This document shows, one piece after another, positions 1 to 17,891 of a stretch of DNA of 64,000 nt (position 1 is the first letter of the stretch; each line of letters starts with the position of its first letter). This DNA is from Candidatus Gottesmanbacteria bacterium UBA5942 (lineage in GTDB: Bacteria > Patescibacteriota > Microgenomatia > UBA10105 > UBA927). The position numbers and the translations under genes are program-made. The notes under the pieces were generated by a model, which was given only the letters and a program-made list of their open reading frames with translations, was not told where the DNA came from and searched no databases. The stretch lies in contig DJCU01000008.1 in assembly GCA_002430725.1 (NCBI GenBank), forward strand, positions 393 through 64,392, in the 5' to 3' direction.

Positions 1-2
1 TT

Positions 3-3000
3 AGATATGCGATAGAGTTTTCTAATCTTCCGTATGTCAGTCTTACGGATGCAAAAAAAGACGTACTTACACTCGAGCAGAAATATCCAGGACAGCCAAT
101 GGTAAGTCGTGAATATGTACTGCGCAATAAAGATACAGCTGGAAAGCGGCCATATAGGGTTGTCACCGTTCCGTTTGATGTGTATGTCAATGACATATAT
201 TTGGCGAATAAAGTATCTGCAGGTATTACCGATCTTGAAATAGATATATTCCAGTTGGGTGTGGGGCGGTTATTCGTTCCAATATCTGAAATATCAGGTA
301 CACAACTAGCGGATTACGCCAGATACCTAGAGTACGCAAGAAATCCGACTGCGTGGAGATTCATGATTGAGCAAATGTGGAAAAAAGATGTGTTTGATAT
401 CCGCAGTAGCACCAGGCAAGTTGTTGAATTTACCCGTTCATTGAACGTAAAAAATGTTGGTCCATTGTTGGGTAGAGCGTGGAAGCAAACTAGCGCTGGT
501 ATTACTGCTGCAAGTAGCCGCATTTCACAGCGATTTAATACATTAGGAATTCGTATCCTTCCATTGCCCCGAGTGCAGGTTGTCGACAGCATCGGAACGA
601 ATGGAAGAACTGTGCAGTCATCAGTACGCTTTGATAAAGGTGCGCAGGACGCTTTGGTGGCTGACTTGCAGAGAACATATCAAACAGAATTTGGATTTAT
701 TGAGTCGGTAGAAAAGGCTCGAATTCAGAGCGCAGAGGTTACTACAGACTCGCTTATAAACAGTGTTATAGTTGAAGCAAGAACGGTGATGGCCTCGGGA
801 ACGAGTAAAGAAATTGAAGAGTTGGCTCTTCATACAGTGATAGCATTTGAGCGGCTGCTATCAGACAAAAAACAAATATCTTCATTTACTGATGCACAAC
901 TGTTGGCTATACGAAAAGCGATATTTAGCAAATCTATTGCAATAGAATTACCGACTGGCACAGGAAAAACATATGCCACCGCATGTGTCGCGCTCATTCG
1001 TGCGCTTATGGGGCAACCGGTGTTGGTTAGTTCAGCTAATGCTGATTTGGCACAGCGAGATTTAGCAGATGTTGGCGAGTTATTTAGACCGTTCCGCATA
1101 TCTTCAGGGTTCGCAGCAAAGGGAAAGTCATTAAATCCATCAATTCGTATTACGTACGGTAAACTTTCTGACATTGTGGCAGCATCGGGACGAGCACTTC
1201 GGACAGGTGTCGACATAGATATTAATGCATATACGTTGTTGCCTGATGAAGGAGATAAAAGTTTGTTGCAGGAAGCGTTAACTCCTATTGTTGAAGTAGA
1301 AGCGGCACAGGGTGAAAGTGCTGGCCTTACATCTGAAGAGGAGCTATTGATTGTAACAATGGCGCGCAACACACAGCAAATGGTTACTGAAGGAGGGTAT
1401 GTAATACCGGACGAACAACAAGAAATACTTTCTTTACTAACACCAGAAGCGAACGAAAAATTAGATACATACAAACCTGATGCAATGTCCGAAGAGAAGT
1501 TTATTGAGTACAAGGAGTTTGCGAGGCGCGCCGCGTTTATGCGAGAAGGAAAAGATTATCTTTATGATCAATATACCGGTGAGATCACATTACTCGATAA
1601 CGAGCAGTTGGCCGATCTCGATAAGAAATTCCAGTCGGGTATCCAGTGGGCGTTGGAGGCAAAACATGGGAGAACGTCAGGGTTTAGCGTTGTTAACGAT
1701 GAAGTGCGGGACAAACACACCACAATGGCATTTGTTCGTCAGGTTGGAAGCGTTATCGTGTTTACGGGAACTGCTTATGAAGAAATTGATGAATTAGAAA
1801 CATATTACGATTTAGAATACGCATCGATTCCACAACCGCTTTGGATATCTATCGCTAGACAACCTCAGGGTACTGATAGGCTGCGTTTAGTTGAGTATTT
1901 TGATCAGGCCAGCGGTATATGGCTTAACGCGATTATAGAAAATCAACAAGGTCAGTGGGTGATTATAGAAAAAGACAGAATTGATTACGAACCTCGATTG
2001 TTCGTTACTGAAGATGCTAAGTTGCATGCCATCCAATCAGACGCAGAGGTTTTGCGAAATTCTGGTCGTGCAGTTCTAGTTGCTTCACAAAATGAAGCGA
2101 GCATGGATAATATTGCATCACTTATTCCTAATGCAATCTCGATTTCTGAGCGTGAACGAGACGAAAAGCGTCAGAATATAGAAATCTCAGGGCACTCCGG
2201 AAATGTAGCAATCGGAAGCGCAAATATTGGAAGAGGTGTTAATTTCCAGCCGGACGAGCAAGTGCAACAAGCTGGCGGTTTTTACGAGATGATCACGGGC
2301 ATCATGAAGCCAAGCACACTTTCTCAGGTGCGCGGTCGTGTAGCGAGGTTGTCTCCGGTGAGGCAAGGCGCATATCAAGCAAGAGCGTGGGGAGCTACGA
2401 GACAATATTTATCTCTCTCGGACATTGCGTCTATATTAGGCTCTACAGATGCGCGAGTGAGAGAACTTGCATATCCTTCTGGTGAAATTACGAAAAACGA
2501 TCCCCGCTATCCAAAGATGGTGAAGCTGATTAGAGAGGCGGAATTAAAGATACAAGAACGTGAAAAGGTTGCGAGAGCTGCACAATTTTATGCAGATCAT
2601 GCTACAGATGAGATTGGTCATGTGCAAAGGCATTTGGCTTTATCAGGATTTGGTGCCGCAAGGCAAACTATTGATTGGTTACTGCGCAGGATAGCTCATG
2701 AAACAAATAGTGCTCTCAAGAAATCATATTTACATAGTGCTGAAGAAGTGTGGAAGCAATATCTAGCAGAGCTAGAAGTGCTAAAGACTACTGCATGGGC
2801 AGGTGCTCAAAGCGAAAAGATTGATCCGGAAATATATTACCAACGAGAATCTTCAACGCTCCTTCGGAATATGATTGCTGTTCTTGCTGATGTTGTTCCT
2901 GCAACAGTTATTGCCCCAACAATACCTATTTTGTCTGATGACGTATGCATGGGTAGTAAAGCAAACTGTGTGGTTGAGGCGGTTATTACTGAGCGGGTAA

Positions 3001-6000
3001 TAGACGCAATCCAGTCGAATAATATGACAGATACAGAAAAAATACAGGCACTGCAGGCATATAAACTTACTGAAAGAGATTTACCGGCACATCAGCTTGC
3101 TATTCATGATGCAACTATAGCGATAGCGTTGGCAGAGTTAGATGTGGCACAGGGTGCAAGCGCAAGAAGTGCGATAAATAGAGCGTTACAATCGCTCAAT
3201 GCGCGTCTTCAAGCACGTCCTGCTCCAGACGATGCAGCTTTGTTAGAGCGAACCAGGGAGGTACTTGAACAAATAAGAGGCGCGATGCCAGAAGGATCAT
3301 CACTTATGGACAGAGTGCGCGATTGGATGCCTGCACCAACAACTATTTTGCAAAGTAACCCAATCCTTGCTCAATTTGCAAAGTACTTTACGTTCGGTTC
3401 AAACATAATCGATACAGACGTAACCACTGTTTCATCGATTCAAGCTGAAGTTACTCTTGTCGCCACAACCCGCGCTGAAGCAGATCGGTATCGGAGCACA
3501 CTCAAGGCTACATACCCACGTTTCCTTCTCGAAACATTACCAACGGGTGACGACAATCAGTTTTTCTTTGTACGGAATGCATCGGGGGAGACAGTTGGAT
3601 TTATCGTTTACCAGACAGCAAATGAAGTGGTTGAGCTTCGTAACCTCATTATCGATCCTCAGTATCAGAACCAGTCGTATGGCACGAATGTGCTTGCTGT
3701 TCTTAAAGAACAATTTAATGAAATTCGATTAACCCCTGTTCCTCATTATGTCGCTGAAGGGGTTGAAGTAGACGATGCGTATGACGCGCTTGTTCGATTT
3801 TATGAACGGGCAGGGTTTATCAAGCAGACGGTGATTGAAAACAGATTTGAGGTAGAAAAATATGTGTGGCGATCTCCATCGGTTCAACGGTTAACAGATA
3901 TGCGTCCGGCTACGGGACGTGAGCGGGTACTGGATGGTGCGCGGGCACTGGAGAGGACATATAGCCCACTCACAAGATCCGCGAAACAAGCCGTACGAAG
4001 TGCTGCAACTTGGATAAATGATCGTATGTGTGGAGGTGCCGCATTTAGATTTATTCGTCCGGTGTTTGCACAGCTAGGTTCTCCGTCTGGAAACACCTCC
4101 TGTCCTGCGGGAAGCGTGGTGAATACGATAGCACCAGTGGCTGAAGCAGCGATGGATGCTCCGGTGGTAACCATGATGAATGCATTAGGTTTTGAAGAAC
4201 CAATTGCACAAATTCCGACTACTCGAGGAGTTGGTTTCTTTACTAGGACCATGCGTTATCAGGGGAGCATTGCTTCAGAGGAAAGTGTGTTCGGGGTCAT
4301 CATGGAAAAGACAATCGATGGTGTGCCCACCGGGAAATGGATATTGAATGTAATGGCAACTGATGAGCTGAGTCTGCCGCCAGTGAATGGCGAAAAAACA
4401 AAAGCGCTTGATGCGTGGTATTTGACTGATGGCTCTGAGTTTCGCGTAGGAACAAATGAGTATAGAGTGCGGGTAATCGATGGCATGTTGTATGTGTATC
4501 ACACCAATCCGCGAAATCCTCAAGGGGCTGAAGGGGATGCGATGGTGGTCGTAGCTGATCTCTATGGTATAAATCCGTTTGTCGAGTTAGCAGATCGCCC
4601 AGTCGCGAGGGACTGGTTCGAAGGGTTTGTAAAAAACAGAGTTATAGATGCTGGATTAGCGCGTATCCTTCCTGTGCCAGTTATTTCTGATGATATTAAG
4701 ATTGGCGAAAATCAAAACACTAATGTCGTTTCTCCAGGGAGACGCGAAGAAATTGTTGCGTCATTACGGAGAACTCGCGATCCGCTTCAAGTATTATCCT
4801 CTTTCTTGTTTATCCGCATGGTGAAAGCTGGATATCACATTTTGATTGCTGATATCGATAGTCTTTATCGGGCAAATCAAACCGGTGTTACCCCATACGG
4901 AGTAACAGGCGACATACTGCTTCATGATATTGCTGAGGCGTTGGGCGAGCTTAATCGTGAGTTTGGAATAGATATAGAGCTTCGGGTTGCAGGAGATACG
5001 TTTGCGTTAGTTTCCAAAGAACCGTTGCCTTCTGATATGGCTGATCGGGTGAAAAACCGTATACAGCAGGTGCGCGGTTTATATGGCGGACGGGGAGACA
5101 TCATTTCGTATGAGCCGGCACGCGTAAAAGTGTTAAGCACTCGCGGAGATGAGTGGATAGGTTTTTCAGAGCGTGATCCAAGCATACCCCATACGGTCAG
5201 AAGAGAGCGATTAGTGCGAATACATCCGGAAGTCGGCATGTTTTTTGACGAACTCGATGCATCATCCGTTTCTCAAGGTCAAAAAGAAGCGTACTTACAA
5301 TTTATTGAAGAAGCGTTGCTCGATCCTGTGCTCTTTACGGGAGCGCAAGACGCGGGGGTAGAGTCGTTTGTCCACCGGAATGACTATTTGGATCATTTAG
5401 TGCCTCACATGATAGACACGTTTGGAAAATCTGAATCGGATGGGAAAAATGCATATCTGGTGCGCATCAGTGTATCTGGTGTTCTTAAGCTCCTCAACGA
5501 TCGGTTTGGTGATGCCGCTGGTAATGTGTTTATCCGACACCTTTTTGATCGAATTATCGCGGTGAATAAACAGTTAGAGGTAGGTGATCTTGCGTGGTAT
5601 GACTTGTATCGGAAAGGCGGGGATTTTGAGTTGACGATAGTAGGAGATGAAGCGCAGGCGCAAGCGCTGATAAACGCGTTGACACAGGCACTCGCGGGGA
5701 CATATACCGAAGGTGGTCACGTGTATAATTTGCAGCCAACAGTCGTTTCTAAAATTATTGATATGCAAACGATAGACGGGCAAACAGTGGTTGATAAAGC
5801 GGAGCTTGAAGCAAGGTTTGGTGCTGTCGAAAGTGATTTGGCGCAGGCGGAATGGTATGAAACCGTCAGAAGGCAAACAAATCTCATGTTTGTCGATGAC
5901 AGCGAGCTTCAAACTGCGCTTTCATACTATGATCCATACGATAAGCGAGGTGCGGTGAGATTGTGGAAGTTGGGTTTGGTAGAAGATGCGGATGTAGAAG

Positions 6001-9000
6001 TGTTCAAACAGATGTACGTTGATCCTGCGAGTCAGAAACGATGGTATTCCGGTCTGTTTGAATGGGTGTATTGGAAATTACCTCCCGGATTTCGTTCGCG
6101 ATTTGCGAGTACGCTAATGCCTGCTCGTGAGCGGATACGTGCTGGTATGCTGCCTCGTGCAAAGGCGTTTCTTACCGATTATCTTGTACGATATGTCGCG
6201 GGATATGATCGCTCTGACAGTGTGTTAATCGCAGACCGTGCAGAGCACACCATGCTTAATTTCCGTTTGGAATTAGAGCGTTTGGTTGCCGAAGGGGAAG
6301 CGTTACAGCGCACGATCACCCCGTCAACGGATGATGTAATAATGCGCGCAATTCAGAGTGAAATTACGGAAATTTCTCGACAAATAGATGCGCATATTCG
6401 GACTATTTTCACTGACTTTACGGATGAACAGCTCCGTCAGTACAAGATTGACCGGAATATCCAACAACGTTTGATGGGCCCCGCAAGCGGAACGCTGGTA
6501 ACACCGCCTACTAACCAACAATTCAATGTTCGGGGCACACTGAGAAATCCTGCCGCCGCCGATGCAAAGCGGGTGCTTGTCGATGAGTTGGGAGTGCTTA
6601 CGGAGGAGCAGTTACGGGAAAGGACGCAAAAGTTGGTTACTGTGTCGCCCCTGACAATCATCAAAGACTCTATGTTTCCGAGCCAGGAAAATAGAAATAC
6701 GTATATGAAGTCATTAGGCGTGACCCGTTTGAGCGCGTTTGGAGAAGTGATATTTCGGCTGGTAAATCTGTATTCAGGACTGTTTGAACGAGGACACTTT
6801 GATGATCGTACCGGCCAACAGTATGTCGTGCCGATGACGGGATTGTCAGCACTCTTTATAGCAGCAGGTGTATATGTATTGCTTCATTTAGCTGCGCCTC
6901 CATTGGCAATAGTTACTGCAATTGCCGGAGTGTTGATGTTTATATTGCCCGCATGGCAGCTTATAACGTTTCCAAATGCTTATTATCATGAGCTCACCCA
7001 TGCGCTGAATATAACGCAGGATAAGCAGTTCGTTTCATATTCAGAATCTCAGGGTTCAGATCTCGCGAACGAAATATTTACCGATTACTTTACTCGAAGG
7101 GTGACGGAACAGTCGCAAACATTTTTTGGGAAAATAGCGCACTTGAGCTATCGAATGTTTGGAAATAACTACGGAGGTAAAATGTCATGGATACCGTTAC
7201 TTTTGGATGAGTTGGACAAAGGGGAAGTGCCTGGCACGGCAGAGCGTATGTTGGCACATTCATATTTTGCGAAACCGGGCGCTGAAAATGATTTTCAAGA
7301 ATTACTCCAAAGAAAATTGGGCAATGAACGCGCAGCGAATGTAATTGCCGCCATAAAGACAGTCTATGATGCTGGCTCAATGTCAAAGGATGATTTGTTA
7401 AAAACGAATGCTATTAAAAATATTTTAGAGACGCGCGTGCAGCAAGGAAATGAGGTAGAAGCGACCGCATATTTACAGGAGCTCGAAGCGCTCGTGGCTC
7501 GGGGAGAAGCCCTTCGCACAAGTATTTTGCCCTCCATGACCTCGGAAGGGAGAGTGCCTATCGAGGAGGAAATAGCAGAAATCAGTCGTCAGATAGATAC
7601 GCTTATACGAGGCGCAAATCCAGCATTTGATGATGTGGCACTTCGTCAGTACAAGATTGACCGGAATATCCAACAGCGCTTGATGGGCCCCGCAAGCGGG
7701 ATGCTTATGGCACCAGCTACTCCGTTGGTAGATCAATATGTGGCAACACCAGTAAATAGCGTTGGAGTGGCAAAAGCGAAAGCGAGCAAAGCCGGCCTCA
7801 TGCATAACGGGGTGCGGCAACTGGCTGATGGATCGACTATGACGATAGGAGGACAGGACGTCATTATCAGAAGCACCCGAACTGCAGTGATTGTGGATGG
7901 AGTGTCCAATAGTATACGGAATGATCAGGGTGAGAATTATTTTGATCAGGAGGTGCAGGATGAAGCAATGGTGCGTGCGCTAGCCGTTTATGGAGCTGTA
8001 CTTCGGGCATTTGATGAACTTGATTTAGATGGTGCTGATCCATCAAATAGGGTTGGCGACATTGTCACACTGATAGAAAGGCATCTTTCAACTATTGTTC
8101 CCGCGTCATCGCCCACAAATAGACCAGCACAAACGACTATCAGCGTGCACCACGCGGTGCAAACACCAACAGGGTGGAAAATAGTGAGCTTCCGTATTGG
8201 CGATCAAAGTGTATTTACTGTTTCACCGGAAGAAATTGGAGAAGTGTCACCGCCAAATAATTTTCATACTGCATTAAACGAGATGAGTGGGGCAGAAGTG
8301 CAGTTAGTTGACGTGCTTGAGGCTTGGAAAGCGTTGCCGCTGGAGATGAAGCGTTTATATCAGACGAGAACGACAAATTTGCCTCAGATGATCGAAGAAG
8401 GATACGCTGGAACTGTAGATATTTCAGCAATTCCTGTTGGTGGATTTGTGATTGTTGGCTCAGATGCGTTGCGGTCGCTTTTTGCTGATCGTCCTTCACT
8501 CGTGGGTGCATTACATAGTGAACTTAAAGGAGTGATAAGTGCACAGGAAGCAGAATCTCGCATCGTGGCATTTCTTGATCGGTATAGTAATTTATATGAC
8601 CAGATAGATGATGACGTGTCGTTTATCGTTTTTGCGCAAACGCCAGAAGGCGTGTTGGATAACGGTGTTTCCATAGCGGCTTCACCGAGAACGCTTGAGA
8701 CCTCTGTAGGCATTACGTCAGAACGCCCAGTGTTAGGAGAAGTGAAAGTAGACGGATTAACACTCGGATACTTTTCAGTAACGGATACACAGGCATATTT
8801 AACTGGCAATACCATCCCAATTTGGGTCAATAATAAGCGATATGATCCACATACGGAAACGCACGCTGGTATGGCATCTATAGAGGTGGGCGATACAGTG
8901 ACCTTTGTTCCCAAGACAACCAAAAATGTCATTTTATATGTTGTCGATGTTGACACACAGGGGCACATGATCCTTCGACACGCCAATCAGCGACCGGGTA

Positions 9001-12000
9001 AAAACGGAGATAATATCGACTTTTCTACTGAATCTCTTCGGGTTGTTCCCGCAGGATCGCGGTATAATTACGAACGGGCATTTGCGGCATGGAATGTGAC
9101 GAGTAACGAAGATAAAACTGCATTTCTTACTGCAGTGGCAACGCTTATCGATACGTTGCCAGAAAAAACAATATTTCCTGATGGAGACGACCAGATTTTC
9201 CGTGTCACAGGGTCGATAAATAGGACATTTGCGCAATTGGAGTTTGATGGGGTAATGAGAGAGATCCTTTCTCAGTTGCGCCCGGGAGAATCGGTAAGCC
9301 TTCGCGTGATACACCCCGATGGTGTTGTCATTGGTGATACCGCTATTGTGAAAGAGTCGGTAGACGTGGAACTTGGCACTATTACGCTTCGTGATGATGG
9401 GATAGCTGAGTTTCAAATGGGTAAAATAAAGCGATTGTCATCGCGGTTCCGAACAGAAAATGTGGCGGTGCCTGAAGCGTTGTCGTATAGCCCTGAACAA
9501 GTATTAGCGGTCATGATAGCGGCATTAGTAAAGCCCAGTTGTTATGTTGATGTAGGCGTACAACACAAAGTATATGCACAGTCGAAAAACCCCGAAACTG
9601 TAGGGAGCGTATGTCTCCTTGCTGCCCGCTCACTCATGAGTGCGGTGCGAAGCGCGGAACGTGGGCAATTTTGGCGTTCTATGCAGCAGTGGTGGCATGA
9701 ACAGCAAGTGATGTGGAATGTACTCCTTGGGAGACAGCGTGAACCGGTTTCGTTTCAAGATACATTAGATGTAGAACCAGCCATTGAATTGGAGGCAACG
9801 AGCGAAGCGCGCGAAGCAGTTATACGACTTTCAGAAATAACCGAGACCACGAGAGATGCTGAATTTATGGACATAATAAATCTTCCCGAGCTCTCGGTGC
9901 GAGATGCATTTCGTAGGCAGTTCGATACCGATATGACTGCATTTTTAGGATATATGTGGTTGTACGGACAACAAGAAGGAATGCTTACTGCCATAGAGAA
10001 ACAGACTGCCACTATCAATTTTCTCACTATGCTTCGTGATAGATATTCAGTCACATTACAGGCAGCACAACCATTCTTTTATCGTGAGTTAACTGAGGGT
10101 CATGAGCAGGATGCAAATCCTGCAGATTTTCTCATTTCCGATGCATTAGTAACGCTTATTGCAAGTAGTCCGACCGCGAGAGATGTGTATGCTGTGTGGC
10201 AAGAAATGGCGAAGGACACAAATCAGGACGTGCGATCACTTCAAGAAAATGAATGGCTCGTGCCGCATCCGTTTGATGACGGAAAAGAAATTCGTGTAAC
10301 ACACGAAGAAACATACGTGGAAGTGACGAATGGCGATGCTGTAGTACGACTTCCTATCGATAATACATATCATCCTTCGATACAAGAAGTTGCAGATAGT
10401 GTTGATGTGCTTGAGCCCGGTATTCGTGTATCGCTGCATACAGATGGTACTGCTGCTCTATTTGTGATGGCATATCAACACAGCATCGTTTGGGATGATG
10501 AGTATGAAATTAGATTTTCTACTGATAGACGGGGAAATTTGTATAAGAAAGGGGCAAAGCAAGCAGGCAAAATTACGGTATGGCCCAGATATACCGAAGA
10601 GTTTGCTGAGATTATCACCCCACCGCTTGCATTTGACGTGGCACATATAAACGGGACATATTTTGTGCAGAAAATGCCTAGCATTCGATTACACGAGGGT
10701 TTCGAGGTGATGAAACCAGATGGATCTCTGTATTCATTACAGGTGGGGGATGAAGTAAGTGAGATGGGTGTTTCGGATACGTATACGATCACCGATGCGC
10801 CCTTTGATTGGAAAGCGATAGGTGATGCTAACAAGTGGGTGTCGATATATGTAAGCCCGTTACGAGAAAGGGGTTTTGAGGGTCGTATTTGGGTAGATGC
10901 GGCAAATCCGGTGATACGTCATGTATCTAGCCCTGTCGATCCGTCCACAGAAAATATGAGTAGTGTGGTGCAGTCGATCCGCATACGTATTCCGGCAATT
11001 GTGGAGAAAAATAAAGCAATATCCCAAGCGCAAGCGACAACCACTACAGATGCGCTGAATAATGTCACACAAGCCATAACCGGAGTGTTTACGAATCCAG
11101 ATTGTTATGCCATGAGGAGTGAATACGTAGCGTACGCTGCCGAGACGACCCGCGATGGTACGTGTCCCACATGGGGAAAGTCGCCACGAAGGGTAGTGCG
11201 CGGCATGAGAAACAGAAGTGAACGGGAGCGGATGGATGCCGATGCTCGCAGTTATGTGCGGATGCTCATATTAGCAGTGCCTCCGATCGGATTTCTTGTA
11301 GACGGGGCGATTAAGGCAGGAATTTGGTATGTAACCGCTCCGCCTCCGCCACCAGTGACTCCACAGTGTACCTTGGGTTCATGTGCGGTGAATGGGCTGT
11401 GTCCCGCGGGTCAACAATGTAGCGCAACCGGTTGTTGTACACAGCTTTCTGCGTACGAAGATTTTGTTTGCTCGGTGGATAAACAGTATCTGTTGAAGCG
11501 CACCATGATAGCACCAGGTGGGTTTTCAATCGATATAAATGCGTCATTTAGATGTCTTGATGGGTGTGTCAATAATGATTGTGCGCAAAAAGCACAGATG
11601 ACGTTCCCTGAGCAGTGTACTGACGCGATGAAAAGGACACCGCTTCTTTATGGATTTGATAGTAATTATGGCGCTATGAATTCATGTCTTGCCATAGATG
11701 ATCTTGCGACCATGTCGTATTATCGTGAGTTTACTTGTAGTACAGATGGCTTGTCGGTCATAGAGCGTGCGACTGGAAATGTCGTGCGGACGTGCTTAGG
11801 CAACCAAACATGCAAACAATCTGGGGATATTGCTGATTGTTTGGGTCCGGTGGGGTACGTGCGACCGCAAAACGCAATTATCGATATGGTCTGTCAGGGA
11901 AATGACGTGTATTTGTTTGACTCTGATACACAGACATTTACCCAACACGTTGCCTCCTGTCCAGTGCGTGGTTGCCAGCAGGGCGCATGTATTGCATATG

Positions 12001-12740
12001 AAGGTGACCGATGCGATAGCTATGCAGTCGCGGGAGCAACAAATATTAATGCACATGTGAGTGTCGATGGCATGCCGATTAGCTGTAATGCAGAGGGAAA
12101 TGTGGTCGTTGCTGATGGGCTTAATAAACGCGTAAATGTCATTACAGGTGTCAATAATATTAAAAATCAGGTATATGACGCGTTAGCATTACTTCCTCCA
12201 GGGTTGATGAAAAAAGATTTTGAGATAGTGGTGTATCCTTCTGGCATTCTTTATGGGGATGACTTAAGTTGGCAATCACTTTGGCAGCGGGTGCTTGGTA
12301 GTGGACGAGACAATATAGGTGGTGTTGATAATCAAACGTTTCCATATCATCGGCGTATATTGCTTACCGAGCAGCAGCCAGAGTTGATGTCGTATGCAGT
12401 GATACATGAGGTAATGCACGCGTATGCGGTTGATCAGCTCACCATACCAGCGTTTGTGCCGCTTGCCGGATTTTATAATATGTTTTCAGTAGGGCAGCAT
12501 AGCAATACTCCAGTCGGATTTCACACAATGATAGGGTGTAAACCAGATGGTTCGTATGATGGTGTACCGTTTAGCGATTATCCCAATCCTGACTGCGCAG
12601 AGGAGTTTGCTGAAGAGGGTGCAGGGTACGTGTTTAAGGCGTGCGAGCTTAAGGCATACAACGAAGATCGGTATAACTACTTCAAAAACGAAGTTTTTGA
12701 TGGTCGAGAGTACCTTCCACCTCAGGGCTGCGTGAATTGA
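3..12740 (+). CDS. Giant multidomain protein, 5'-partial; contains a SecA-family motor ATPase core fused to GNAT, two GGDEF-like domains, a TM/HExxH segment and a Cys-rich C-terminal domain
   Basis: The ORF is uninterrupted from 99 to 12740 (4213 aa). I translated positions 3-98 in the same frame and found no stop, so the ORF is open to the window edge and its N-terminus lies outside the window. A 12.6 kb open frame cannot arise by chance. Domain calls are listed as separate 'other' features. The last 19 nt overlap the convergent gene 12722-13555. Confidence 0.85.
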   Translation, partial: RYAIEFSNLPYVSLTDAKKDVLTLEQKYPGQPMVSREYVLRNKDTAGKRPYRVVTVPFDVYVNDIYLANKVSAGITDLEIDIFQLGVGRLFVPISEISGTQLADYARYLEYARNPTAWRFMIEQMWKKDVFDIRSSTRQVVEFTRSLNVKNVGPLLGRAWKQTSAGITAASSRISQRFNTLGIRILPLPRVQVVDSIGTNGRTVQSSVRFDKGAQDALVADLQRTYQTEFGFIESVEKARIQSAEVTTDSLINSVIVEARTVMASGTSKEIEELALHTVIAFERLLSDKKQISSFTDAQLLAIRKAIFSKSIAIELPTGTGKTYATACVALIRALMGQPVLVSSANADLAQRDLADVGELFRPFRISSGFAAKGKSLNPSIRITYGKLSDIVAASGRALRTGVDIDINAYTLLPDEGDKSLLQEALTPIVEVEAAQGESAGLTSEEELLIVTMARNTQQMVTEGGYVIPDEQQEILSLLTPEANEKLDTYKPDAMSEEKFIEYKEFARRAAFMREGKDYLYDQYTGEITLLDNEQLADLDKKFQSGIQWALEAKHGRTSGFSVVNDEVRDKHTTMAFVRQVGSVIVFTGTAYEEIDELETYYDLEYASIPQPLWISIARQPQGTDRLRLVEYFDQASGIWLNAIIENQQGQWVIIEKDRIDYEPRLFVTEDAKLHAIQSDAEVLRNSGRAVLVASQNEASMDNIASLIPNAISISERERDEKRQNIEISGHSGNVAIGSANIGRGVNFQPDEQVQQAGGFYEMITGIMKPSTLSQVRGRVARLSPVRQGAYQARAWGATRQYLSLSDIASILGSTDARVRELAYPSGEITKNDPRYPKMVKLIREAELKIQEREKVARAAQFYADHATDEIGHVQRHLALSGFGAARQTIDWLLRRIAHETNSALKKSYLHSAEEVWKQYLAELEVLKTTAWAGAQSEKIDPEIYYQRESSTLLRNMIAVLADVVPATVIAPTIPILSDDVCMGSKANCVVEAVITERVIDAIQSNNMTDTEKIQALQAYKLTERDLPAHQLAIHDATIAIALAELDVAQGASARSAINRALQSLNARLQARPAPDDAALLERTREVLEQIRGAMPEGSSLMDRVRDWMPAPTTILQSNPILAQFAKYFTFGSNIIDTDVTTVSSIQAEVTLVATTRAEADRYRSTLKATYPRFLLETLPTGDDNQFFFVRNASGETVGFIVYQTANEVVELRNLIIDPQYQNQSYGTNVLAVLKEQFNEIRLTPVPHYVAEGVEVDDAYDALVRFYERAGFIKQTVIENRFEVEKYVWRSPSVQRLTDMRPATGRERVLDGARALERTYSPLTRSAKQAVRSAATWINDRMCGGAAFRFIRPVFAQLGSPSGNTSCPAGSVVNTIAPVAEAAMDAPVVTMMNALGFEEPIAQIPTTRGVGFFTRTMRYQGSIASEESVFGVIMEKTIDGVPTGKWILNVMATDELSLPPVNGEKTKALDAWYLTDGSEFRVGTNEYRVRVIDGMLYVYHTNPRNPQGAEGDAMVVVADLYGINPFVELADRPVARDWFEGFVKNRVIDAGLARILPVPVISDDIKIGENQNTNVVSPGRREEIVASLRRTRDPLQVLSSFLFIRMVKAGYHILIADIDSLYRANQTGVTPYGVTGDILLHDIAEALGELNREFGIDIELRVAGDTFALVSKEPLPSDMADRVKNRIQQVRGLYGGRGDIISYEPARVKVLSTRGDEWIGFSERDPSIPHTVRRERLVRIHPEVGMFFDELDASSVSQGQKEAYLQFIEEALLDPVLFTGAQDAGVESFVHRNDYLDHLVPHMIDTFGKSESDGKNAYLVRISVSGVLKLLNDRFGDAAGNVFIRHLFDRIIAVNKQLEVGDLAWYDLYRKGGDFELTIVGDEAQAQALINALTQALAGTYTEGGHVYNLQPTVVSKIIDMQTIDGQTVVDKAELEARFGAVESDLAQAEWYETVRRQTNLMFVDDSELQTALSYYDPYDKRGAVRLWKLGLVEDADVEVFKQMYVDPASQKRWYSGLFEWVYWKLPPGFRSRFASTLMPARERIRAGMLPRAKAFLTDYLVRYVAGYDRSDSVLIADRAEHTMLNFRLELERLVAEGEALQRTITPSTDDVIMRAIQSEITEISRQIDAHIRTIFTDFTDEQLRQYKIDRNIQQRLMGPASGTLVTPPTNQQFNVRGTLRNPAAADAKRVLVDELGVLTEEQLRERTQKLVTVSPLTIIKDSMFPSQENRNTYMKSLGVTRLSAFGEVIFRLVNLYSGLFERGHFDDRTGQQYVVPMTGLSALFIAAGVYVLLHLAAPPLAIVTAIAGVLMFILPAWQLITFPNAYYHELTHALNITQDKQFVSYSESQGSDLANEIFTDYFTRRVTEQSQTFFGKIAHLSYRMFGNNYGGKMSWIPLLLDELDKGEVPGTAERMLAHSYFAKPGAENDFQELLQRKLGNERAANVIAAIKTVYDAGSMSKDDLLKTNAIKNILETRVQQGNEVEATAYLQELEALVARGEALRTSILPSMTSEGRVPIEEEIAEISRQIDTLIRGANPAFDDVALRQYKIDRNIQQRLMGPASGMLMAPATPLVDQYVATPVNSVGVAKAKASKAGLMHNGVRQLADGSTMTIGGQDVIIRSTRTAVIVDGVSNSIRNDQGENYFDQEVQDEAMVRALAVYGAVLRAFDELDLDGADPSNRVGDIVTLIERHLSTIVPASSPTNRPAQTTISVHHAVQTPTGWKIVSFRIGDQSVFTVSPEEIGEVSPPNNFHTALNEMSGAEVQLVDVLEAWKALPLEMKRLYQTRTTNLPQMIEEGYAGTVDISAIPVGGFVIVGSDALRSLFADRPSLVGALHSELKGVISAQEAESRIVAFLDRYSNLYDQIDDDVSFIVFAQTPEGVLDNGVSIAASPRTLETSVGITSERPVLGEVKVDGLTLGYFSVTDTQAYLTGNTIPIWVNNKRYDPHTETHAGMASIEVGDTVTFVPKTTKNVILYVVDVDTQGHMILRHANQRPGKNGDNIDFSTESLRVVPAGSRYNYERAFAAWNVTSNEDKTAFLTAVATLIDTLPEKTIFPDGDDQIFRVTGSINRTFAQLEFDGVMREILSQLRPGESVSLRVIHPDGVVIGDTAIVKESVDVELGTITLRDDGIAEFQMGKIKRLSSRFRTENVAVPEALSYSPEQVLAVMIAALVKPSCYVDVGVQHKVYAQSKNPETVGSVCLLAARSLMSAVRSAERGQFWRSMQQWWHEQQVMWNVLLGRQREPVSFQDTLDVEPAIELEATSEAREAVIRLSEITETTRDAEFMDIINLPELSVRDAFRRQFDTDMTAFLGYMWLYGQQEGMLTAIEKQTATINFLTMLRDRYSVTLQAAQPFFYRELTEGHEQDANPADFLISDALVTLIASSPTARDVYAVWQEMAKDTNQDVRSLQENEWLVPHPFDDGKEIRVTHEETYVEVTNGDAVVRLPIDNTYHPSIQEVADSVDVLEPGIRVSLHTDGTAALFVMAYQHSIVWDDEYEIRFSTDRRGNLYKKGAKQAGKITVWPRYTEEFAEIITPPLAFDVAHINGTYFVQKMPSIRLHEGFEVMKPDGSLYSLQVGDEVSEMGVSDTYTITDAPFDWKAIGDANKWVSIYVSPLRERGFEGRIWVDAANPVIRHVSSPVDPSTENMSSVVQSIRIRIPAIVEKNKAISQAQATTTTDALNNVTQAITGVFTNPDCYAMRSEYVAYAAETTRDGTCPTWGKSPRRVVRGMRNRSERERMDADARSYVRMLILAVPPIGFLVDGAIKAGIWYVTAPPPPPVTPQCTLGSCAVNGLCPAGQQCSATGCCTQLSAYEDFVCSVDKQYLLKRTMIAPGGFSIDINASFRCLDGCVNNDCAQKAQMTFPEQCTDAMKRTPLLYGFDSNYGAMNSCLAIDDLATMSYYREFTCSTDGLSVIERATGNVVRTCLGNQTCKQSGDIADCLGPVGYVRPQNAIIDMVCQGNDVYLFDSDTQTFTQHVASCPVRGCQQGACIAYEGDRCDSYAVAGATNINAHVSVDGMPISCNAEGNVVVADGLNKRVNVITGVNNIKNQVYDALALLPPGLMKKDFEIVVYPSGILYGDDLSWQSLWQRVLGSGRDNIGGVDNQTFPYHRRILLTEQQPELMSYAVIHEVMHAYAVDQLTIPAFVPLAGFYNMFSVGQHSNTPVGFHTMIGCKPDGSYDGVPFSDYPNPDCAEEFAEEGAGYVFKACELKAYNEDRYNYFKNEVFDGREYLPPQGCVN
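800..2450 (+). other. SecA-family (DEAD motor, NBD1-PPXD-NBD2) ATPase core inside the giant ORF
   Basis: I matched motifs against E. coli and B. subtilis SecA from memory. FTDAQLLAI..IAIELPTGTGKT at nt 951-971 matches HFDVQLLGG..IAEMRTGEGKT (Walker A). GTGKTYATACVALIRALMGQPVLVSSANADLAQRD matches [35 protein letters not shown]. ITYGK matches ITYGTN. DEGDKSLLQEALTPIVEV at nt 1245 onward matches DEVDSILIDEARTPLIIS (Walker B). WALEAKHG matches QAVEAKEG. FTGTA at nt 1761-1775 matches GMTGTA. IGRGVNF at nt 2229 onward matches AGRGTDI. QVRGRVARL matches QLRGRSGRQ. Motif order and spacings (Walker A to DE about 98 aa, DE to TGTA about 172 aa) fit SecA. Confidence 0.7.
3540..3840 (+). other. GNAT-fold acetyltransferase-like domain inside the giant ORF
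   Basis: The segment VGFIVYQTANEVVELRNLIIDPQYQNQSYGTNVLAVL...YDALVRFYERAGFIKQ has a motif A-like Q-x-x-G-x-G/N and the typical C-terminal F-Y-E-R/K-x-G-F. Confidence 0.5.
4800..5080 (+). other. GGDEF-like nucleotidyl-cyclase palm domain 1 (degenerate: DID retained, GGDEF replaced by AGDTF)
   Basis: HILIADIDSLYRANQTGVTPYGVTGDILLHDIAEAL...IDIELRVAGDTFALVS aligns to the GGDEF consensus llDiDhFKxiNDtyGHxxGDxvL...RyGGDEFavl. Confidence 0.5.
5440..5720 (+). other. GGDEF-like palm domain 2 (degenerate: DxD replaced by SVS, signature reads GGDFE)
   Basis: LVRISVSGVLKLLNDRFGDAAGNVFIRHLFDRI...DLYRKGGDFELTIVGDEAQAQAL aligns to the same consensus. NDxxGxxxGN and RxGGD are retained, but the metal-binding DxD is lost. 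Confidence 0.5.
6435..6490 (+). repeat. Intragenic direct repeat copy A (56 nt)
   Basis: cgtcagtacaagattgaccggaatatccaacaacgtttgatgggccccgcaagcgg encodes RQYKIDRNIQQRLMGPASG. Copy A and copy B are 54/56 nt identical and the repeat unit is in frame (offset 1209 nt). The flanking roughly 80 aa are also similar at the protein level (..ISRQID..IR..F.D..LRQYKIDRNIQQRLMGPASG). Confidence 0.9.
6850..7010 (+). other. Predicted TM hairpin followed by HExxH motif (YYHELTHAL) in the giant ORF
   Basis: Two hydrophobic stretches, LSALFIAAGVYVLLHLAAPPLAIVTAIAGVLMFILPAW, are followed immediately by HELTH at nt 6985-6999. This resembles membrane-associated zincin signatures (M48 HELGH) and the DUF4157-type HELTHVvQ motif. 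Confidence 0.4.
7644..7699 (+). repeat. Intragenic direct repeat copy B (56 nt)
   Basis: cgtcagtacaagattgaccggaatatccaacagcgcttgatgggccccgcaagcgg has 2 mismatches to copy A. Confidence 0.9.
11340..12737 (+). other. Poly-Pro linker plus Cys-rich C-terminal domain carrying a second HExxH (IHEVMHAY at nt 12405-12419)
   Basis: A hydrophobic stretch (MLILAVPPIGFLV) is followed by APPPPPVTPQC and about 430 aa with roughly 40 Cys (for example CTLGSCAVNGLCPAGQQCSATGCC). HEVMH sits in a zincin-like context. The Cys richness suggests an extracytoplasmic, disulfide-bonded domain. Confidence 0.5.
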
Positions 12741-13555
12741 GCAAATATTTCCTCATTGTTAGCAAATGAGAATACATATTCAGGTTCGATAGCATGTTGC
12801 GTTCGATAAGTGGTTATCGCTTTCAATTTCTTGCGTTTTTCGAGTTTGTTTAGGTGTATGCGCATGAGCGGGGTATCGTTTGCAAACAAAGGCGCTGCGT
12901 CATTATGGATGACGTAGGTGAGTAATTGTCCCTGGTAGGCGATATGCTCCATAGCATCATCGACAAATTTTCGGGCGATGATGTGATCGAGTGCAGTGTC
13001 ACCTGTATCAGGTACGACAATAAGCGTTGGTTTTGTGCGTGTTATGGTAGTCGCAATATCGTTAGTCATTGCAGCATTGGCATAGGGCATACCTGTTTCC
13101 GGAGATGCTGAAAGACCGGTGTACCGGCTAGAAAAGGGGCTACCATCGTGGGTATTGTACACTTCTTCAAGTAGGCCATCCGGATACCCTAAAAATGTGA
13201 TATTGTGCCGAGAAAGTCCGAGGATATGTGTCGCACGGTATTCTTCTTTTTTACGAGCGTTACCAAGACGTAGATAGTCATCTGTTGTGAGCGATGTTGC
13301 GGGTTTTTTAGATAGATATGCTGCAGCATCTGTGTATGCTTCACCATGAGTTAGCTCGAGAATATGTATAGATTGTCCTTTGGTAATGGCTTGTTGTATG
13401 AAGCCAGCACAGCAAAGCACCGCATCATCAGGATGGGGGGCAATTATGAGAATATCAGCGCGTTGTGAAGTCGCCTGGGAAGATAAAAAGAGTGGGAAAA
13501 TACTAGCGAAGAATAGTGCTACAGAAAGCCATAAATATCGCGTATCGTAAAGCAT
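12722..13555 (-). CDS. LmbE/PIG-L family N-acetylglucosaminyl deacetylase-like protein with an N-terminal signal or TM segment
   Basis: IIAPHPDDAVLCCAGFIQQA..HGEAYTD matches the AHPDDE/zinc-binding motif of the PIG-L (LmbE) deacetylase family. The N-terminus is hydrophobic. Confidence 0.65.
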   Translation of the reverse strand: MLYDTRYLWLSVALFFASIFPLFLSSQATSQRADILIIAPHPDDAVLCCAGFIQQAITKGQSIHILELTHGEAYTDAAAYLSKKPATSLTTDDYLRLGNARKKEEYRATHILGLSRHNITFLGYPDGLLEEVYNTHDGSPFSSRYTGLSASPETGMPYANAAMTNDIATTITRTKPTLIVVPDTGDTALDHIIARKFVDDAMEHIAYQGQLLTYVIHNDAAPLFANDTPLMRIHLNKLEKRKKLKAITTYRTQHAIEPEYVFSFANNEEIFAQFTQP

Positions 13556-13564: not shown

Positions 13565-15952
13565 TTATTGCTGTTTTTTTCGTAGTGCAAAAATAAGCAA
13601 GAAAAGTGTAACGATGCCAACAACAAAAAGTAATTTTTTGGTGACTGTTGGCTGATAGGTAAATGTGATGGTGTGTTCTCCTTGTTCCTCAACCATTACC
13701 GCGGTGTAAAACGGAAATACTGCAAACGATTGCGCCTGTTTTCCGTTCACCGTTATGTGCCACGAAGGGTGAAATGACTGCCGGAGGATGACGATACAGG
13801 ATGGACAAGGTGTCGTGTTTACGATGGTCGCATGAAATTCCATGTCAGTGCTGTAGCCTTGGTTGGTAATGCGTGGTATAGCACTCGGTGTTCCTTGCGG
13901 GTTTGCGTAGCGGGGCGTTTCTGCAAATAGATTGTGGAGTGAACCGTCTGGTACTTTGTAAGTAGCCTCATCGAGCATGCGGAAGTTAGGGAGTCCTGTG
14001 GGGCGTGGATAGTTTCGGTCAAAGGTAAGTTCGGGATAGAGAAAAGCTTTCGGAGCATCTGAATGCATCCAAAGCCGTATGAGGCTTCGATAATTTGATT
14101 TATCAGCAGAAACTATCGCTGGTTTTATTCCGGTGGTGATATAGCCCATCGAGGAGTTGTATGATTGCCCGCCTGCTATGGAGTCAGGTTGTATTGTTTT
14201 ATTATTATTTTCGTTGTTTTCATTAACCGTCACCTCATAGAATTTCCATGTTGCACCGGTTTCTATAAGCTTCCAGAAGGGCTGGATTGCGTCAGATGGG
14301 AGATTAGCCGGTGTTACGACATATCGGACGTTGTAGAGCGAGTAGTGAGCGATATTTTGTTCGGAAAAGTATTGTTCGGTGTCGGAGTTAGGTGACCATG
14401 TTTCCGGCAGCCAAAGGATAACTGGAATACCATAGGTTGATAGGTGCATATATAGAGGAGTTTCTGCAATCCGGAACTCCTTGCCCCAGTTGCCCCCGCG
14501 ACCTGCAAATACTCGACCTGGTTTTTCTACCATTTTTTGAGTGAGTATGGAGAATAAACGGTCGGTATCAGCGGCATTCTTGACGTAGTTTTCGTTGGCG
14601 CGTGAGATGAGAATGTCATTGTGTGACGCGTACCGGAGGCTTTGGGGGAAAACGAAAATAACGAAAATAACGAGTATGACTAAATACGAGAACAACGAAA
14701 GTGACAGCATACGAGAGCGATATAGGCGTGAAAAATAAGAGGAGGTTGTTTGGATAAGCCAATCTATACCAGTAGCGATAAGGAAAAGTCCTGCGGTATG
14801 AACACCGACAATAAATCGAGAAATATGAAAATCATCCATGCCCGGGATAATGCTCATGAGGCTTCCCCATGTTGTACGGCCAAAATACATAAGAAGCCAG
14901 AAAGCAAAGAGAAACGCAAATGGCGTATAGCGTGAGGTAATAAGAGCGGAAAATAAGCCAACAAATACCCCAATGGTAAGAATAGGGAAGCGACCAAAAT
15001 CGAAAAGATCACCGTTTAGTAGATTTTTGAGCACTTCGCGATAGCCGAAAGAATTAAATTTCCATATACCGTCCCATACAGAAATGTTGTGATAATTACC
15101 ATCTTTCAGGATGGGAAGTATCCAGTAGCCGAGGAGCAGTCCAACAATGCCAAAAATTATTAATACACGTGTGAGCGTAGTAACAAGTTTTCTTGTTGTT
15201 TCTTTGTTCCATTCATGAGTGAGTAGAGATTGTAAAGATGGGCTAATAGCGATGATGCCTACGCTAAGAAAAGCGATGATGCCTAAGCCCAAATGTCCTG
15301 CGGTGGTAAAGCTGAGGAACAGGGTTGTATAGATATAATCTCTCCGCGTTACATTGCTCGTACATAATCGAAATGCATAAGAAAGCGCCAGAGGAAGCCA
15401 TAACATGGCAAATAGTTGGCTGGTAAGTCCGTACCCTCGCCACAGAAATGATGGGGTGTCTAAGCCATACAGTCCATCGGTTGAAAGGTGCGAGGCTATT
15501 ATTGCACCTATGCCTGCAGTGGCCATGGGAAGCCCCGCAACCCGAAGGGTTATAAATATTGAAAGGGGAAATAGAGAGAGGAGTAAATAGATGACCCAGT
15601 GATAATAGGTAAACAGTGATACCGATAGACCAATCGCTGAAAGCAGTCGGTATGTTGCTACGATGGTGATTTGGGGTATATGAGAGTAGTAGTAAGGGAG
15701 GTTATATCCCTGTGCCCAGTTTGGCACCCAGTGATCTATAAGGTAAAACGTCATGCAAAAAGGCGCAGTAATGCCAGAACACTTTTGTTGTGCATAAGAC
15801 CATATTTGGTTTGTTCTATCAACTAAAGCGAACTGGAACGTATTATCGTTTGGGTCGATGAGCGCGGTGGGTTCAGTTCGGTAAACCCAAAGGTTAAACC
15901 CTATGGCAAAGAGAACGAAGCATAGGCCAATTATTTTTTCGTAGGACTTCAT
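13565..15952 (-). CDS. YfhO-like polytopic membrane protein (GT-C-type glycosyltransferase candidate)
   Basis: It has about 12 or more predicted TM helices in the N-terminal 450 aa and a soluble C-terminal domain. The C-terminal FHPSWHITVNGKQAQSF...GEHTITFTYQP parallels YfhO-family C-termini (W.PgW.a.vdGk...G.H.v...Y.P) and also the C-terminus of ORF 24028-26058. Confidence 0.55.
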   Translation of the reverse strand: MKSYEKIIGLCFVLFAIGFNLWVYRTEPTALIDPNDNTFQFALVDRTNQIWSYAQQKCSGITAPFCMTFYLIDHWVPNWAQGYNLPYYYSHIPQITIVATYRLLSAIGLSVSLFTYYHWVIYLLLSLFPLSIFITLRVAGLPMATAGIGAIIASHLSTDGLYGLDTPSFLWRGYGLTSQLFAMLWLPLALSYAFRLCTSNVTRRDYIYTTLFLSFTTAGHLGLGIIAFLSVGIIAISPSLQSLLTHEWNKETTRKLVTTLTRVLIIFGIVGLLLGYWILPILKDGNYHNISVWDGIWKFNSFGYREVLKNLLNGDLFDFGRFPILTIGVFVGLFSALITSRYTPFAFLFAFWLLMYFGRTTWGSLMSIIPGMDDFHISRFIVGVHTAGLFLIATGIDWLIQTTSSYFSRLYRSRMLSLSLFSYLVILVIFVIFVFPQSLRYASHNDILISRANENYVKNAADTDRLFSILTQKMVEKPGRVFAGRGGNWGKEFRIAETPLYMHLSTYGIPVILWLPETWSPNSDTEQYFSEQNIAHYSLYNVRYVVTPANLPSDAIQPFWKLIETGATWKFYEVTVNENNENNNKTIQPDSIAGGQSYNSSMGYITTGIKPAIVSADKSNYRSLIRLWMHSDAPKAFLYPELTFDRNYPRPTGLPNFRMLDEATYKVPDGSLHNLFAETPRYANPQGTPSAIPRITNQGYSTDMEFHATIVNTTPCPSCIVILRQSFHPSWHITVNGKQAQSFAVFPFYTAVMVEEQGEHTITFTYQPTVTKKLLFVVGIVTLFLLIFALRKKQQ

Positions 15953-17856: not shown

Positions 17857-17891
17857 CTTCTTATCATACGGGAAAACGAGGAGTTATGAAA

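Follow-up and report, generated by a model that had tools for sequence, protein, structure and literature searches.

Introduction

SecA-like ATPases have been described before as parts of giant bacterial proteins. In giant secreted toxins of actinobacteria, a SecA-like ATPase and MFS domains were 'predicted to facilitate their secretion' (Kaur, Iyer, Burroughs and Aravind 2021, eLife; PMC8195603). Divergent SecA_DEAD and preprotein-binding domains, without scaffold and wing domains, were reported in most giant proteins of Omnitrophota and in some actinobacterial proteins (West-Roberts et al. 2023; 10.1101/2023.11.21.568195). According to the same study, these giants also carry GNAT, GGDEF, phosphatase, and peptidase domains, type II secretion-like genes lie near the giant genes, the genomes retain a normal SecA, and the module was suggested to export the giant protein itself (10.1101/2023.11.21.568195). 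A cluster of 20 proteins sharing a PF07517 architecture is listed in a 2026 preprint (10.64898/2026.06.07.730766). Patescibacteria are not mentioned in these three accounts of giant SecA-like proteins. Here, a SecA-like module was analyzed in a giant protein of a patescibacterium. The gene enters at the left end of a 64,000-nucleotide stretch of DNA from Candidatus Gottesmanbacteria bacterium UBA5942 (GCA_002430725.1, contig DJCU01000008.1, positions 393 to 64,392), hereafter the window.

An original prediction, made from the letters of the window, had recognized a SecA-family motor fused to other domains and had stated that no SecA fusion of this kind was described. That statement is overtaken by the three precedents cited above (PMC8195603; 10.1101/2023.11.21.568195; 10.64898/2026.06.07.730766). 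SecA-like fusions are already described in other phyla and the present protein is a further example. New features are its occurrence in the Candidate Phyla Radiation (CPR), in a genome of about 1–1.2 Mb, a module with scaffold and two-helix finger but without wing domain, and a tiny family with fixed ends and a replaceable middle. The preferred reading, which is given about an even chance, is that the module is a built-in translocation ATPase, exporting the Cys-rich C-terminal domain of its own protein. The idea that such a protein forms a dedicated or self-contained export machine, also voiced in the original prediction, matches the proposals made in the literature for the SecA-like modules of giant proteins.

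Results

A giant gene extending beyond the window

Frame 3 of the plus strand is open from nt 3 to a stop codon at nt 12738–12740, giving 4,245 codons and the stop (3..12740) with no upstream stop inside the window. At the G+C content of the window (43–47%), chance cannot account for an open frame of this length. All features of the protein given below are on the same strand. The locus was found on many public contigs by looking up its downstream neighbor, a PIG-L/LmbE deacetylase gene, and the frame is the C-terminal part of a giant gene called at identical loci. It is carried by NCBI assembly GCA_002433945.1 (DJJD01000001.1, 320 kb) and by the JGI contigs 3300005686 (1,172,763 bp), 3300014773 (985,506 bp), and 3300005672 (117 kb). 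One NCBI assembly and two JGI metagenomes (L002, L003, and L004) were 100% identical to the window across 20.8 kb; another locus, L001, was 100% identical to the giant protein over window residues 908–4245. For the gene adjoining the deacetylase gene, L002 and L004 give a product of 14,187 aa and L001 one of 14,193 aa; the table for L003 does not include it.

The full-length protein has 14,187 residues, of which the window holds the last 30%. Window residue i corresponds approximately to full-length residue i+9,942 (window residue 1 to residue 9,943). Window numbering is used below, and the analysis covered the window part of the protein, that is, the final 4,245 residues. The SecA-like module corresponds to full-length residues 10,167–10,908 or so, approximately 72–77% along the protein. 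No protein starting at the first in-window ATG (nt 99) was on record when the encoding contigs were looked up, which fits a true start far upstream. With 42.6 kb, the gene takes up about 3.6–4.3% of the contigs, those probably being near-complete genomes (approximately 1.0–1.2 Mb). Calculated for 14,188 codons, the whole gene would occupy approximately positions 52,590–95,153 of DJJD01000001.1 and 1,076,474–1,119,037 of Ga0074435_100057 (JGI 3300005686).

These gene calls revise several points of the original prediction. The N-terminal placement of the SecA-like region proved to be an effect of the window edge. The residues preceding it, put at 260 or more, number about 10,170, and the protein, put at 4.7 or more times the size of SecA, is about 17 times that size. 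A stop codon just before nt 3 had been named as a refuting case; the identical loci list instead a 14,187-aa gene running upstream.

The caveat of the original prediction, that a frameshift or misassembly may have joined separate genes or that the SecA-like part is the housekeeping secA of the cell, is backed by nothing beyond the caveat itself and is hardly credible. The sequence is uninterrupted and 100% identical in the independent assemblies GCA_002433945.1, JGI 3300005686, and 3300014773, and in 3300005672 over part of the gene. The same frame and order recur in relatives at 53–75% identity, the sole split (in L006, see below) being a run of N. As for a housekeeping role, the module starts about 10,170 residues into the protein and scores at most 74 bits with the NCBIfam SecA models, the cut-offs of the SecA and SecA2 families spanning 725–1,493 bits.

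Membership of the SecA family

All motifs named in the original prediction were recovered, complete and in SecA order, both in the sequence and in an alignment to 100 SecA-family representatives. They comprise PTGTGKT (Walker A, residues 317–323, nt 951–971), SSANADLAQRD (motif Ia, residues 343–353, nt 1029–1061), ITYG (residues 383–386), DEGD...TPIV (Walker B, residues 414–430, nt 1242–1292), QWALEAKHG (residues 548–556, nt 1644–1670), FTGTA (motif III, residues 587–591, nt 1761–1775), IGRGVNF (motif V, residues 742–748, nt 2226–2246), and QVRGRVARL (motif VI, residues 775–783, nt 2325–2351).

Profile searches pointed to the same family. Pfam SecA_DEAD (PF07517) matched residues 239–598 with an E-value of 6.8e-10 and 39.1 bits, above its gathering score of 24.6 bits; the generic Pfam DEAD model reached 9e-4 only. 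NCBIfam SecA and SecA2 models matched residues 250–611 and 658–782, with E-values down to 6e-21. Their equivalog cut-offs were not reached, the best score being 74.1 bits against a cut-off of 862 and those of SecA2 models 59.6 against 725 and 49.3 against 930. All 23 sequence matches in the PDB were SecA or SecA2, headed by SecA2 of Mycobacterium tuberculosis (4uaq, E = 1.2e-9).

For structure prediction, residues 225–1000 were aligned with the two closest relatives and the 100 SecA-family representatives (alignment A1). The resulting model had a mean predicted local distance difference test score (pLDDT) of 81.7 and a predicted TM-score of 0.82. Following comparison with the PDB using Foldseek, the top 36 matches were all SecA, with E-values down to 5e-28; canonical SecA sequences make up most of the alignment used for modeling and may pull the predicted fold towards SecA. 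TM-scores were 0.68–0.71 for SecY-engaged forms of SecA (6itc_A, 3dl8_A, 5eul_A, and 3din_A), with 0.71/0.72 for the best superposition, and 0.5–0.6 for most free forms. The next family, that of DinG and DEAD-box helicases, followed at E-values of about 1e-8 and TM-scores of about 0.3.

Judged by sequence and predicted structure, the module is a SecA homologue and not a generic SF2 helicase. Pfam, NCBIfam, PDB sequence matches, and Foldseek agree with the original prediction in this respect. Folding and superposing the module, as had been proposed there, returned SecA first among PDB structures, and profile searches matched SecA models more strongly than those of other SF2 families. A module that merely resembles SecA and acts on RNA or DNA, as a nucleic-acid helicase or in another SF2 role, could draw on the weak Pfam DEAD match and on a weak PADLOC match to a DinG P-loop (E = 1.4e-4). 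These helicase matches span the two RecA folds only. The module also shows features specific to SecA, namely a motif Ia of the NDYLAxRD type, the AxEAKxG motif, the scaffold helix, the two-helix finger, and an insert where SecA has its preprotein cross-linking domain (PPXD), making such a role very unlikely.

Anatomy of the SecA-like module

The motor module was delimited by alignment and predicted structure to residues 225–966 (675..2900). N-terminal helices (residues 225–300, within 675..2900) are suggested by alignment A1 and the model. They are followed by the first part of the first nucleotide-binding domain (NBD1; residues 301–435, 903..1307), which contains Walker A, motif Ia, and Walker B and is 87% and 67% identical to the relatives P0031 and L006, respectively. 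An insert of about 111 aa (residues 436–546, 1308..1640) occupies the place of the PPXD in both alignment and model. This insert is 74% and 61% identical to the same two relatives, aligns with the PP_bind segment of a canonical SecA, P0032, at 95 of 106 positions, and was modeled with a confidence of mostly 75–95. The second part of NBD1 (residues 547–611, 1641..1835) holds QWALEAKHG and motif III. Between NBD1 and NBD2, alignment A1 shows an insertion of about 44 aa (residues 612–655, 1836..1967), modeled as low-confidence beta strands; it is not found in canonical SecA and is present in the SecA-like module of P0038, a fragment of another giant protein introduced below.

NBD2 (residues 656–800, 1968..2402) carries motifs V and VI. 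It is matched by the NCBIfam SecA2 model TIGR03714 (residues 658–782) and by phrog_32805 (residues 659–782), and its GRG and QxRGRxxR motifs are conserved in the alignment; PF21090 (P-loop_SecA) itself was not reported in the Pfam scan. A long scaffold helix (HSD; residues 836–878, 2508..2636) is predicted with a pLDDT of about 90 (model helix 612–653, model numbering) and aligns with the first part of the SecA_SW domain in canonical SecA. The IRA1/two-helix-finger region (residues 901–966, 2703..2900) was assigned from a partial Pfam SecA_SW match and its conserved tip, LKTTAWAGAQSEKIDP (nt 2781–2828). The consensus LKTTAWA[G/D]AQ of this tip is common to the window protein, P0031, and L006. 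Helices 679–714 and 718–740 (model numbering) complete the model of the scaffold and finger region.

The wing domain, which in canonical SecA comes ahead of the finger region, was not found in the alignment, in which wing residues 626–700 of the canonical SecA P0032 map to just four query residues; the same gap occurs in P0031 and P0038. Pfam likewise gave no match to the SEC-C zinc motif (PF02810), the module continuing straight into other domains. Alignment and model indicate that the module is without wing and, with weak sequence-level support, that it retains scaffold helix and two-helix finger. The Pfam check suggested in the original prediction, aimed at PPXD and wing/scaffold domains, had a mixed outcome: SecA_DEAD exceeded its cut-off and SecA_SW matched in part and below threshold, and neither PP_bind nor the wing was found. 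Its view that this is not the housekeeping translocase ATPase was borne out by the bit scores, by the missing wing and SEC-C tail, and by the position deep inside a giant protein.

All ATPase motifs are intact, including GRG in motif V and QxRGRxxR in motif VI, and the module would be expected to hydrolyze ATP. An inactive relic or structural scaffold, no longer hydrolyzing ATP or moving polypeptides and kept as a folded spacer or docking platform, is an improbable alternative. It fits the very low identity to SecA (21–25%), scores far under the NCBIfam cut-offs, the loss of wing and zinc tail together with the missing PP_bind match, and an Asn in motif V where SecA has Asp (IGRGVNF versus GRGTDI). 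The intact Walker A, Walker B, Ia, III, V, and VI motifs speak against it. So does conservation: in three lineages, with overall identity as low as 53%, no region is better conserved than the module, which argues for selection on function, and the finger tip is kept in all three relatives, which argues for a working motor. Relic, helicase, and assembly artefact are all much less likely than the preferred reading.

Relatives and pattern of conservation

Residues 1–1100 were searched exhaustively with HMMER against 1.84 billion representatives. One close relative was obtained, all other matches being at the level of the SecA family (E-values of 4e-15 or weaker). This relative, P0031 (MCL4200211.1), is a protein of 7,694 aa from a 'Patescibacteria group bacterium', encoded on a 26.7-kb contig and probably truncated at its 5′ end. 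Its public label is 'GNAT family N-acetyltransferase'. It is 66% identical to the window protein over residues 1–1503 and 85% over residues 3671–4245. The 2,170 residues between these conserved ends are replaced in P0031, where the GGDEF region is all that aligns, at 24%. A third relative, L006, is a contig of GCA_964422945.1, the first open reading frame (ORF) of which is 53% identical to window residues 1–881. Its single giant gene is cut into separate calls (the first ORF and P0035) at approximately 5640–5660, where the sequence has a stretch of N and no genuine frameshift. Comparison of the three relatives identified the SecA-like sub-domains as the best conserved (61–87%), the flanks being at 33–70%. 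Residues 1–224 (3..674), comprising the tail of an upstream domain and a conserved region ahead of the module, are 70% identical to P0031 and 34% to L006; they had no match in Pfam and no sequence match in the PDB. By these searches, the close family of the giant protein is very small. Related loci were not found among genome contigs, using residues 1–1100 or a two-sequence alignment, or among metagenome contigs, using residues 1–300 or the upstream part of P0031, in collections from which the window sequence itself seems to be absent or masked.

P0038 is a contig-truncated fragment of 2,176 aa from a JGI metagenome, publicly labeled 'preprotein translocase subunit SecA'. Its SecA-like module is less divergent, with a recognizable PP_bind domain, and has the same insertion before NBD2 and the same wing deletion. 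Its E-value to the window module (3e-13) is like that of the canonical SecA matches. Many free-standing SecA-like matches of about 560–690 aa (P0034, P0043, P0051, and others) have DEAD, PP_bind, and P-loop_SecA domains and no scaffold/wing domain. A homologous-protein search with residues 201–1100 gave a single match, a canonical SecA (P0001) from an unrelated assembly, with no bearing on a second secA here.

In P0031, residues 480–760 or so consist of tandem helical repeats of about 35 aa (...FNRGMAAIAxVAQAQ...), and hydropathy suggests a transmembrane (TM) hairpin at residues 1388–1426, about 1,250 residues ahead of its SecA-like module. TM clusters were also seen downstream in P0035. Searches with the upstream part of P0031 found no homologues, and Pfam on its upstream and middle parts returned GGDEF and one weak hydrolase match only. 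A transglutaminase-type Cys...His...Asp core in P0031, just ahead of the part corresponding to the window, was a motif reading only; databases gave no support and it is not claimed.

Other domains, topology, and cysteine pattern

Downstream of the module, a GNAT acetyltransferase domain (residues 1178–1282, 3534..3848) was identified by the Pfam models Acetyltransf_1 and Acetyltransf_7, both exceeding their cut-offs (E = 2e-7), and by an NCBIfam RimI-like match below cut-off. A GGDEF-type palm domain follows at residues 1613–1691 (4839..5075), with Pfam E-values of 3.7e-5 for the whole protein and 2.5e-7 for the segment. Its signature is degenerate in the window protein (AGDTF, nt 4983–5009) and reads GGDEY in P0031; the domain of the window protein is probably not a standard diguanylate cyclase.

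Two copies of an 81-aa repeat were detected by blastp against each other, at residues 2090–2170 (6270..6512), ending in RQYKIDRNIQQRLMGPASG, and at residues 2493–2573 (7479..7721). The copies are 62% identical over 81 aa (E = 5e-28). Between them lies a predicted TM hairpin (residues 2275–2318; Kyte–Doolittle peaks of 1.98 and 2.25) followed by HELTH, an HExxH motif (nt 6987–7001; hairpin and motif, 6825..7001). This hairpin/HELTH module had no family match when Pfam was run on segments. The repeats could mark module boundaries or processing sites. TM segments were predicted from Kyte–Doolittle hydropathy, with a threshold of 1.6. A further candidate TM segment, weakly hydrophobic (peak 1.78), was found at residues 3754–3779 (11262..11354), with an Arg-rich stretch on its N-terminal side and PPPPP on its C-terminal side (3754–3784 overall).

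The Cys-rich C-terminal domain (residues 3789–4245, 11367..12737) contains 26 of the 35 Cys residues of the window protein and a second HExxH motif, HEVMH (nt 12405–12419), read by eye. It is the block best conserved with P0031, at 85–88% identity. The last 545 residues (nt 11103–12737) hold 28 Cys (5.1%) versus seven in the first 3,700 (0.19%; nt 3–11102), in line with the Cys-rich C-terminus of the original prediction. The first 3,700 residues are depleted relative to the other 40 ORFs of the window (0.90%, P = 4e-8), and P0031 has the same skew, its first 7,000 residues containing five Cys. The C-terminal value resembles that of pilin-like ORFs in the window (2.9–5.8%). Hydropathy and Cys pattern together make an extracytoplasmic location, regarded as probable in the original prediction, plausible for the C-terminal domain. 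No homologues of this domain were found in PDB sequence, Pfam, or homologous-protein searches, and an AlphaFold2 (AF2) model based on a two-sequence alignment of the last 500 residues was unusable (pLDDT 33).

PDB sequence searches with residues 1101–4245 gave weak GNAT matches only, and SecA_SW and GGDEF were all that a Pfam scan of ten sub-segments contributed. No dockerin, TSP3, GH, GT, NUDIX, C39, or S8 domains were found by Pfam in the window part. A PP2C-like stretch at about residues 2585–2790 had no database support and is not claimed.

Proposed function of the module

Under the preferred reading, a cytoplasmic SecA-type motor would be tethered at the membrane by hydrophobic segments of its own protein and would dock on the Sec channel. 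Driven by ATP, it would translocate those portions of its own chain that belong outside the cytoplasm, the minimum cargo being the Cys-rich C-terminal domain with its HExxH motif. Situated between motor and C-terminal domain, the GNAT, GGDEF-like, and juxtamembrane HExxH modules would remain at the cytoplasmic face or be released by processing. The size and reality of the gene, its SecA-family membership, its domain content, and the conservation of the module are shown by the present data. In favor of the mechanism are the reality and size of the gene, the SecA identity of the module, the intact ATPase motifs, the presence of scaffold helix and finger, the conservation of the module, the topology hints from hydropathy and Cys content, and the same role having been proposed independently for SecA-like modules of other giant proteins (PMC8195603; 10.1101/2023.11.21.568195).

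ATP hydrolysis, the topology in the membrane, SecYEG docking, and an effect on its own chain are inferred elements of this mechanism. Several points weigh against it. The upstream 9,942 residues, which may hold signal sequences, TM segments, or other export modules, lie outside the analyzed part. Pfam PP_bind (PF01043) had no match on the module, even at E-values up to 5, and the fold of the insert at the PPXD position comes from a model whose alignment is dominated by canonical SecA. The Pfam SecA_SW match (PF07516, profile positions 126–190, E = 2e-4) scored 21.9 bits, under the cut-off of 26.7. The C-terminal TM candidate is marginally hydrophobic, and its counterpart in P0031 falls under the 1.6 threshold. 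Finally, the bulk of the protein is depleted in Cys, including the motor, and a simple cytoplasmic location offers no explanation for this.

Cys depletion resembles the cysteine exclusion known from exported Gram-positive proteins. It is among the observations favoring a polyvalent effector or toxin. In this case the CPR bacterium, presumably an episymbiont, would export the giant protein or deliver it onto or into its host cell, either whole or as fragments released by the HExxH peptidases of the protein itself. Delivery would then rely on the SecA-like ATPase for unfolding or threading, or the ATPase would work inside the target cell, and it would not act on the SecYEG of the producer. Several enzyme-type modules occur together (GNAT, the GGDEF-like palm, and two HExxH motifs), and the middle 2,170 residues are swapped wholesale between close relatives while the ends are kept, a pattern of exchangeable effector cassettes. 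The 81-aa repeats flanking the TM hairpin and HELTH could mark processing sites, and the actinobacterial counterparts were described as secreted toxins (PMC8195603). Cys depletion, the swappable middle, and the collection of enzyme modules keep this alternative alive. Against it, the best-conserved part is the SecA-like module and not the enzyme cassettes, and the module retains the two-helix finger, an element for moving polypeptides through a channel. Moreover, Pfam, NCBIfam, PHROGs, and PADLOC scans detected no toxin, immunity, or secretion-signal family, and no delivery apparatus was identified beside the gene. Overall, an effector is a real but minor possibility, and one overlapping with the preferred reading of a built-in export ATPase, as secretion of the protein itself is common to both.

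Genomic surroundings

The giant gene converges with the PIG-L/LmbE deacetylase gene (12722–13555, minus strand), overlapping it by 19 nt at its 3′ end (12722–12740). Beyond, from 13565 to 29285, lies a run of ORFs without family match (795, 275, 515, 225, 222, 557, and 537 aa), several of which contain no cysteine. A large cell-envelope glycan cluster extends from 22371 to 51040. It comprises GT2 (six ORFs), GT1/GT4, two DegT aminotransferases, a hexapeptide transferase, a methyltransferase, a radical SAM/SPASM enzyme, Alg13/14-like proteins, two Wzy-like proteins, PMT_2, and YfhO. About 38 kb from the giant gene are three neighboring pilin-like ORFs (51106–52935; 2.9–5.8% Cys, as mentioned above) that carry N-terminal methylation motifs, one of them with a weak T2SSG match. 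Within 54612–63579, the minus strand carries a second very large gene, the product of which (2,189 aa) combines five LamG-type (Laminin_G_3) domains with one Ig-like domain and is probably a surface adhesin; it is adjoined by a 798-aa ORF without family matches.

A phage or mobile-element origin of the giant gene was rejected, since PHROGs, a phage collection, and IMG/VR gave only bacterial SecA contaminants and the neighbors are cell-envelope genes. A component of a defense system was rejected likewise, PADLOC giving only a P-loop match.

Discussion

The closest counterparts are the giant proteins of Omnitrophota ('Archaeovorin', 'Dockerin-type'). As there, a very long multi-enzyme protein contains a divergent SecA_DEAD ATPase at a great distance from its N-terminus, alongside GNAT and putative peptidase-type domains, and the role proposed is export of the protein itself. 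Pilin-like genes with type II secretion system (T2SS)-type signatures are present in the wider neighborhood in both cases (51.1–52.9 kb in the window). The Omnitrophota proteins exceed 30,000 aa (the threshold of the 2023 study) versus 14,187 aa here, and the phylum here is Patescibacteria. Dockerin, TSP3, glycoside hydrolase, NUDIX, and C39 domains, known from those giants, were not detected in the window part of the present protein. Scaffold helix and two-helix finger are detectable here whereas the Omnitrophota modules are reported to lack scaffold and wing, a difference that may partly reflect Pfam sensitivity, the SecA_SW match being sub-threshold here as well. In sequence, no relationship closer than the SecA family was observed between the two kinds of module.

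The actinobacterial toxins of Kaur et al. (2021) are likewise giant multi-domain proteins combining metallopeptidase-type and other enzymes with a SecA-like ATPase predicted to aid their own secretion. They differ in phylum, and the MFS transporter, ART, GT4, and HTH arrays found in them were not detected by Pfam in the window part here.

Canonical SecA (Bacillus subtilis; 6itc, 3dl8, and 1tf5) shares the motor architecture and all ATPase motifs, at an identity of 17–25%. The present module differs by lacking the wing, the C-terminal linker, and the SEC-C zinc motif, by a putative PPXD that is reduced and unrecognizable by sequence, and by the additional stretch of about 44 aa ahead of NBD2. 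Mycobacterial SecA2 (4uaq), about 780 aa long, is a protein in its own right, as opposed to the internal module here, with an identity of about 21% and a score of 59.6 bits against the TIGR04221 cut-off of 725. In lacking both the wing and the C-terminal zinc tail, the layout of the present module resembles mycobacterial SecA2. SecA2 of mycobacteria is also without wing domain, which fits its being the best structural match.

The biology of this protein is striking, the central idea is already published, and the mechanism is one that we infer. How proteins of tens of thousands of residues are exported or inserted is an open question, for which the recurring SecA-like module is the main clue. 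With about 740 aa, well modeled and with its finger kept, the present module and its few relatives, showing which parts are kept and which are swapped, would provide a tractable test of a 'built-in translocase'. Misleading public annotation, as in the labels of P0031 and P0038, hides genes of this sort.

The gene takes about 4% of a genome of approximately 1–1.2 Mb, and such an organism can hardly afford useless sequence. A more far-reaching version of the preferred reading, to which a small chance is given, is that the SecA-like module acts in cis and, tethered to the membrane, threads parts of its own chain of 14,187 residues out of the minimal CPR cell or onward into a host cell, the HExxH peptidases of the protein cutting it at the repeated linkers. 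If true, a single gene would encode a self-exporting, self-processing polyprotein, the host-interaction toolkit of an episymbiont. For such a cis-acting self-exporter, conserved ends and a swappable middle would amount to a modular delivery platform.

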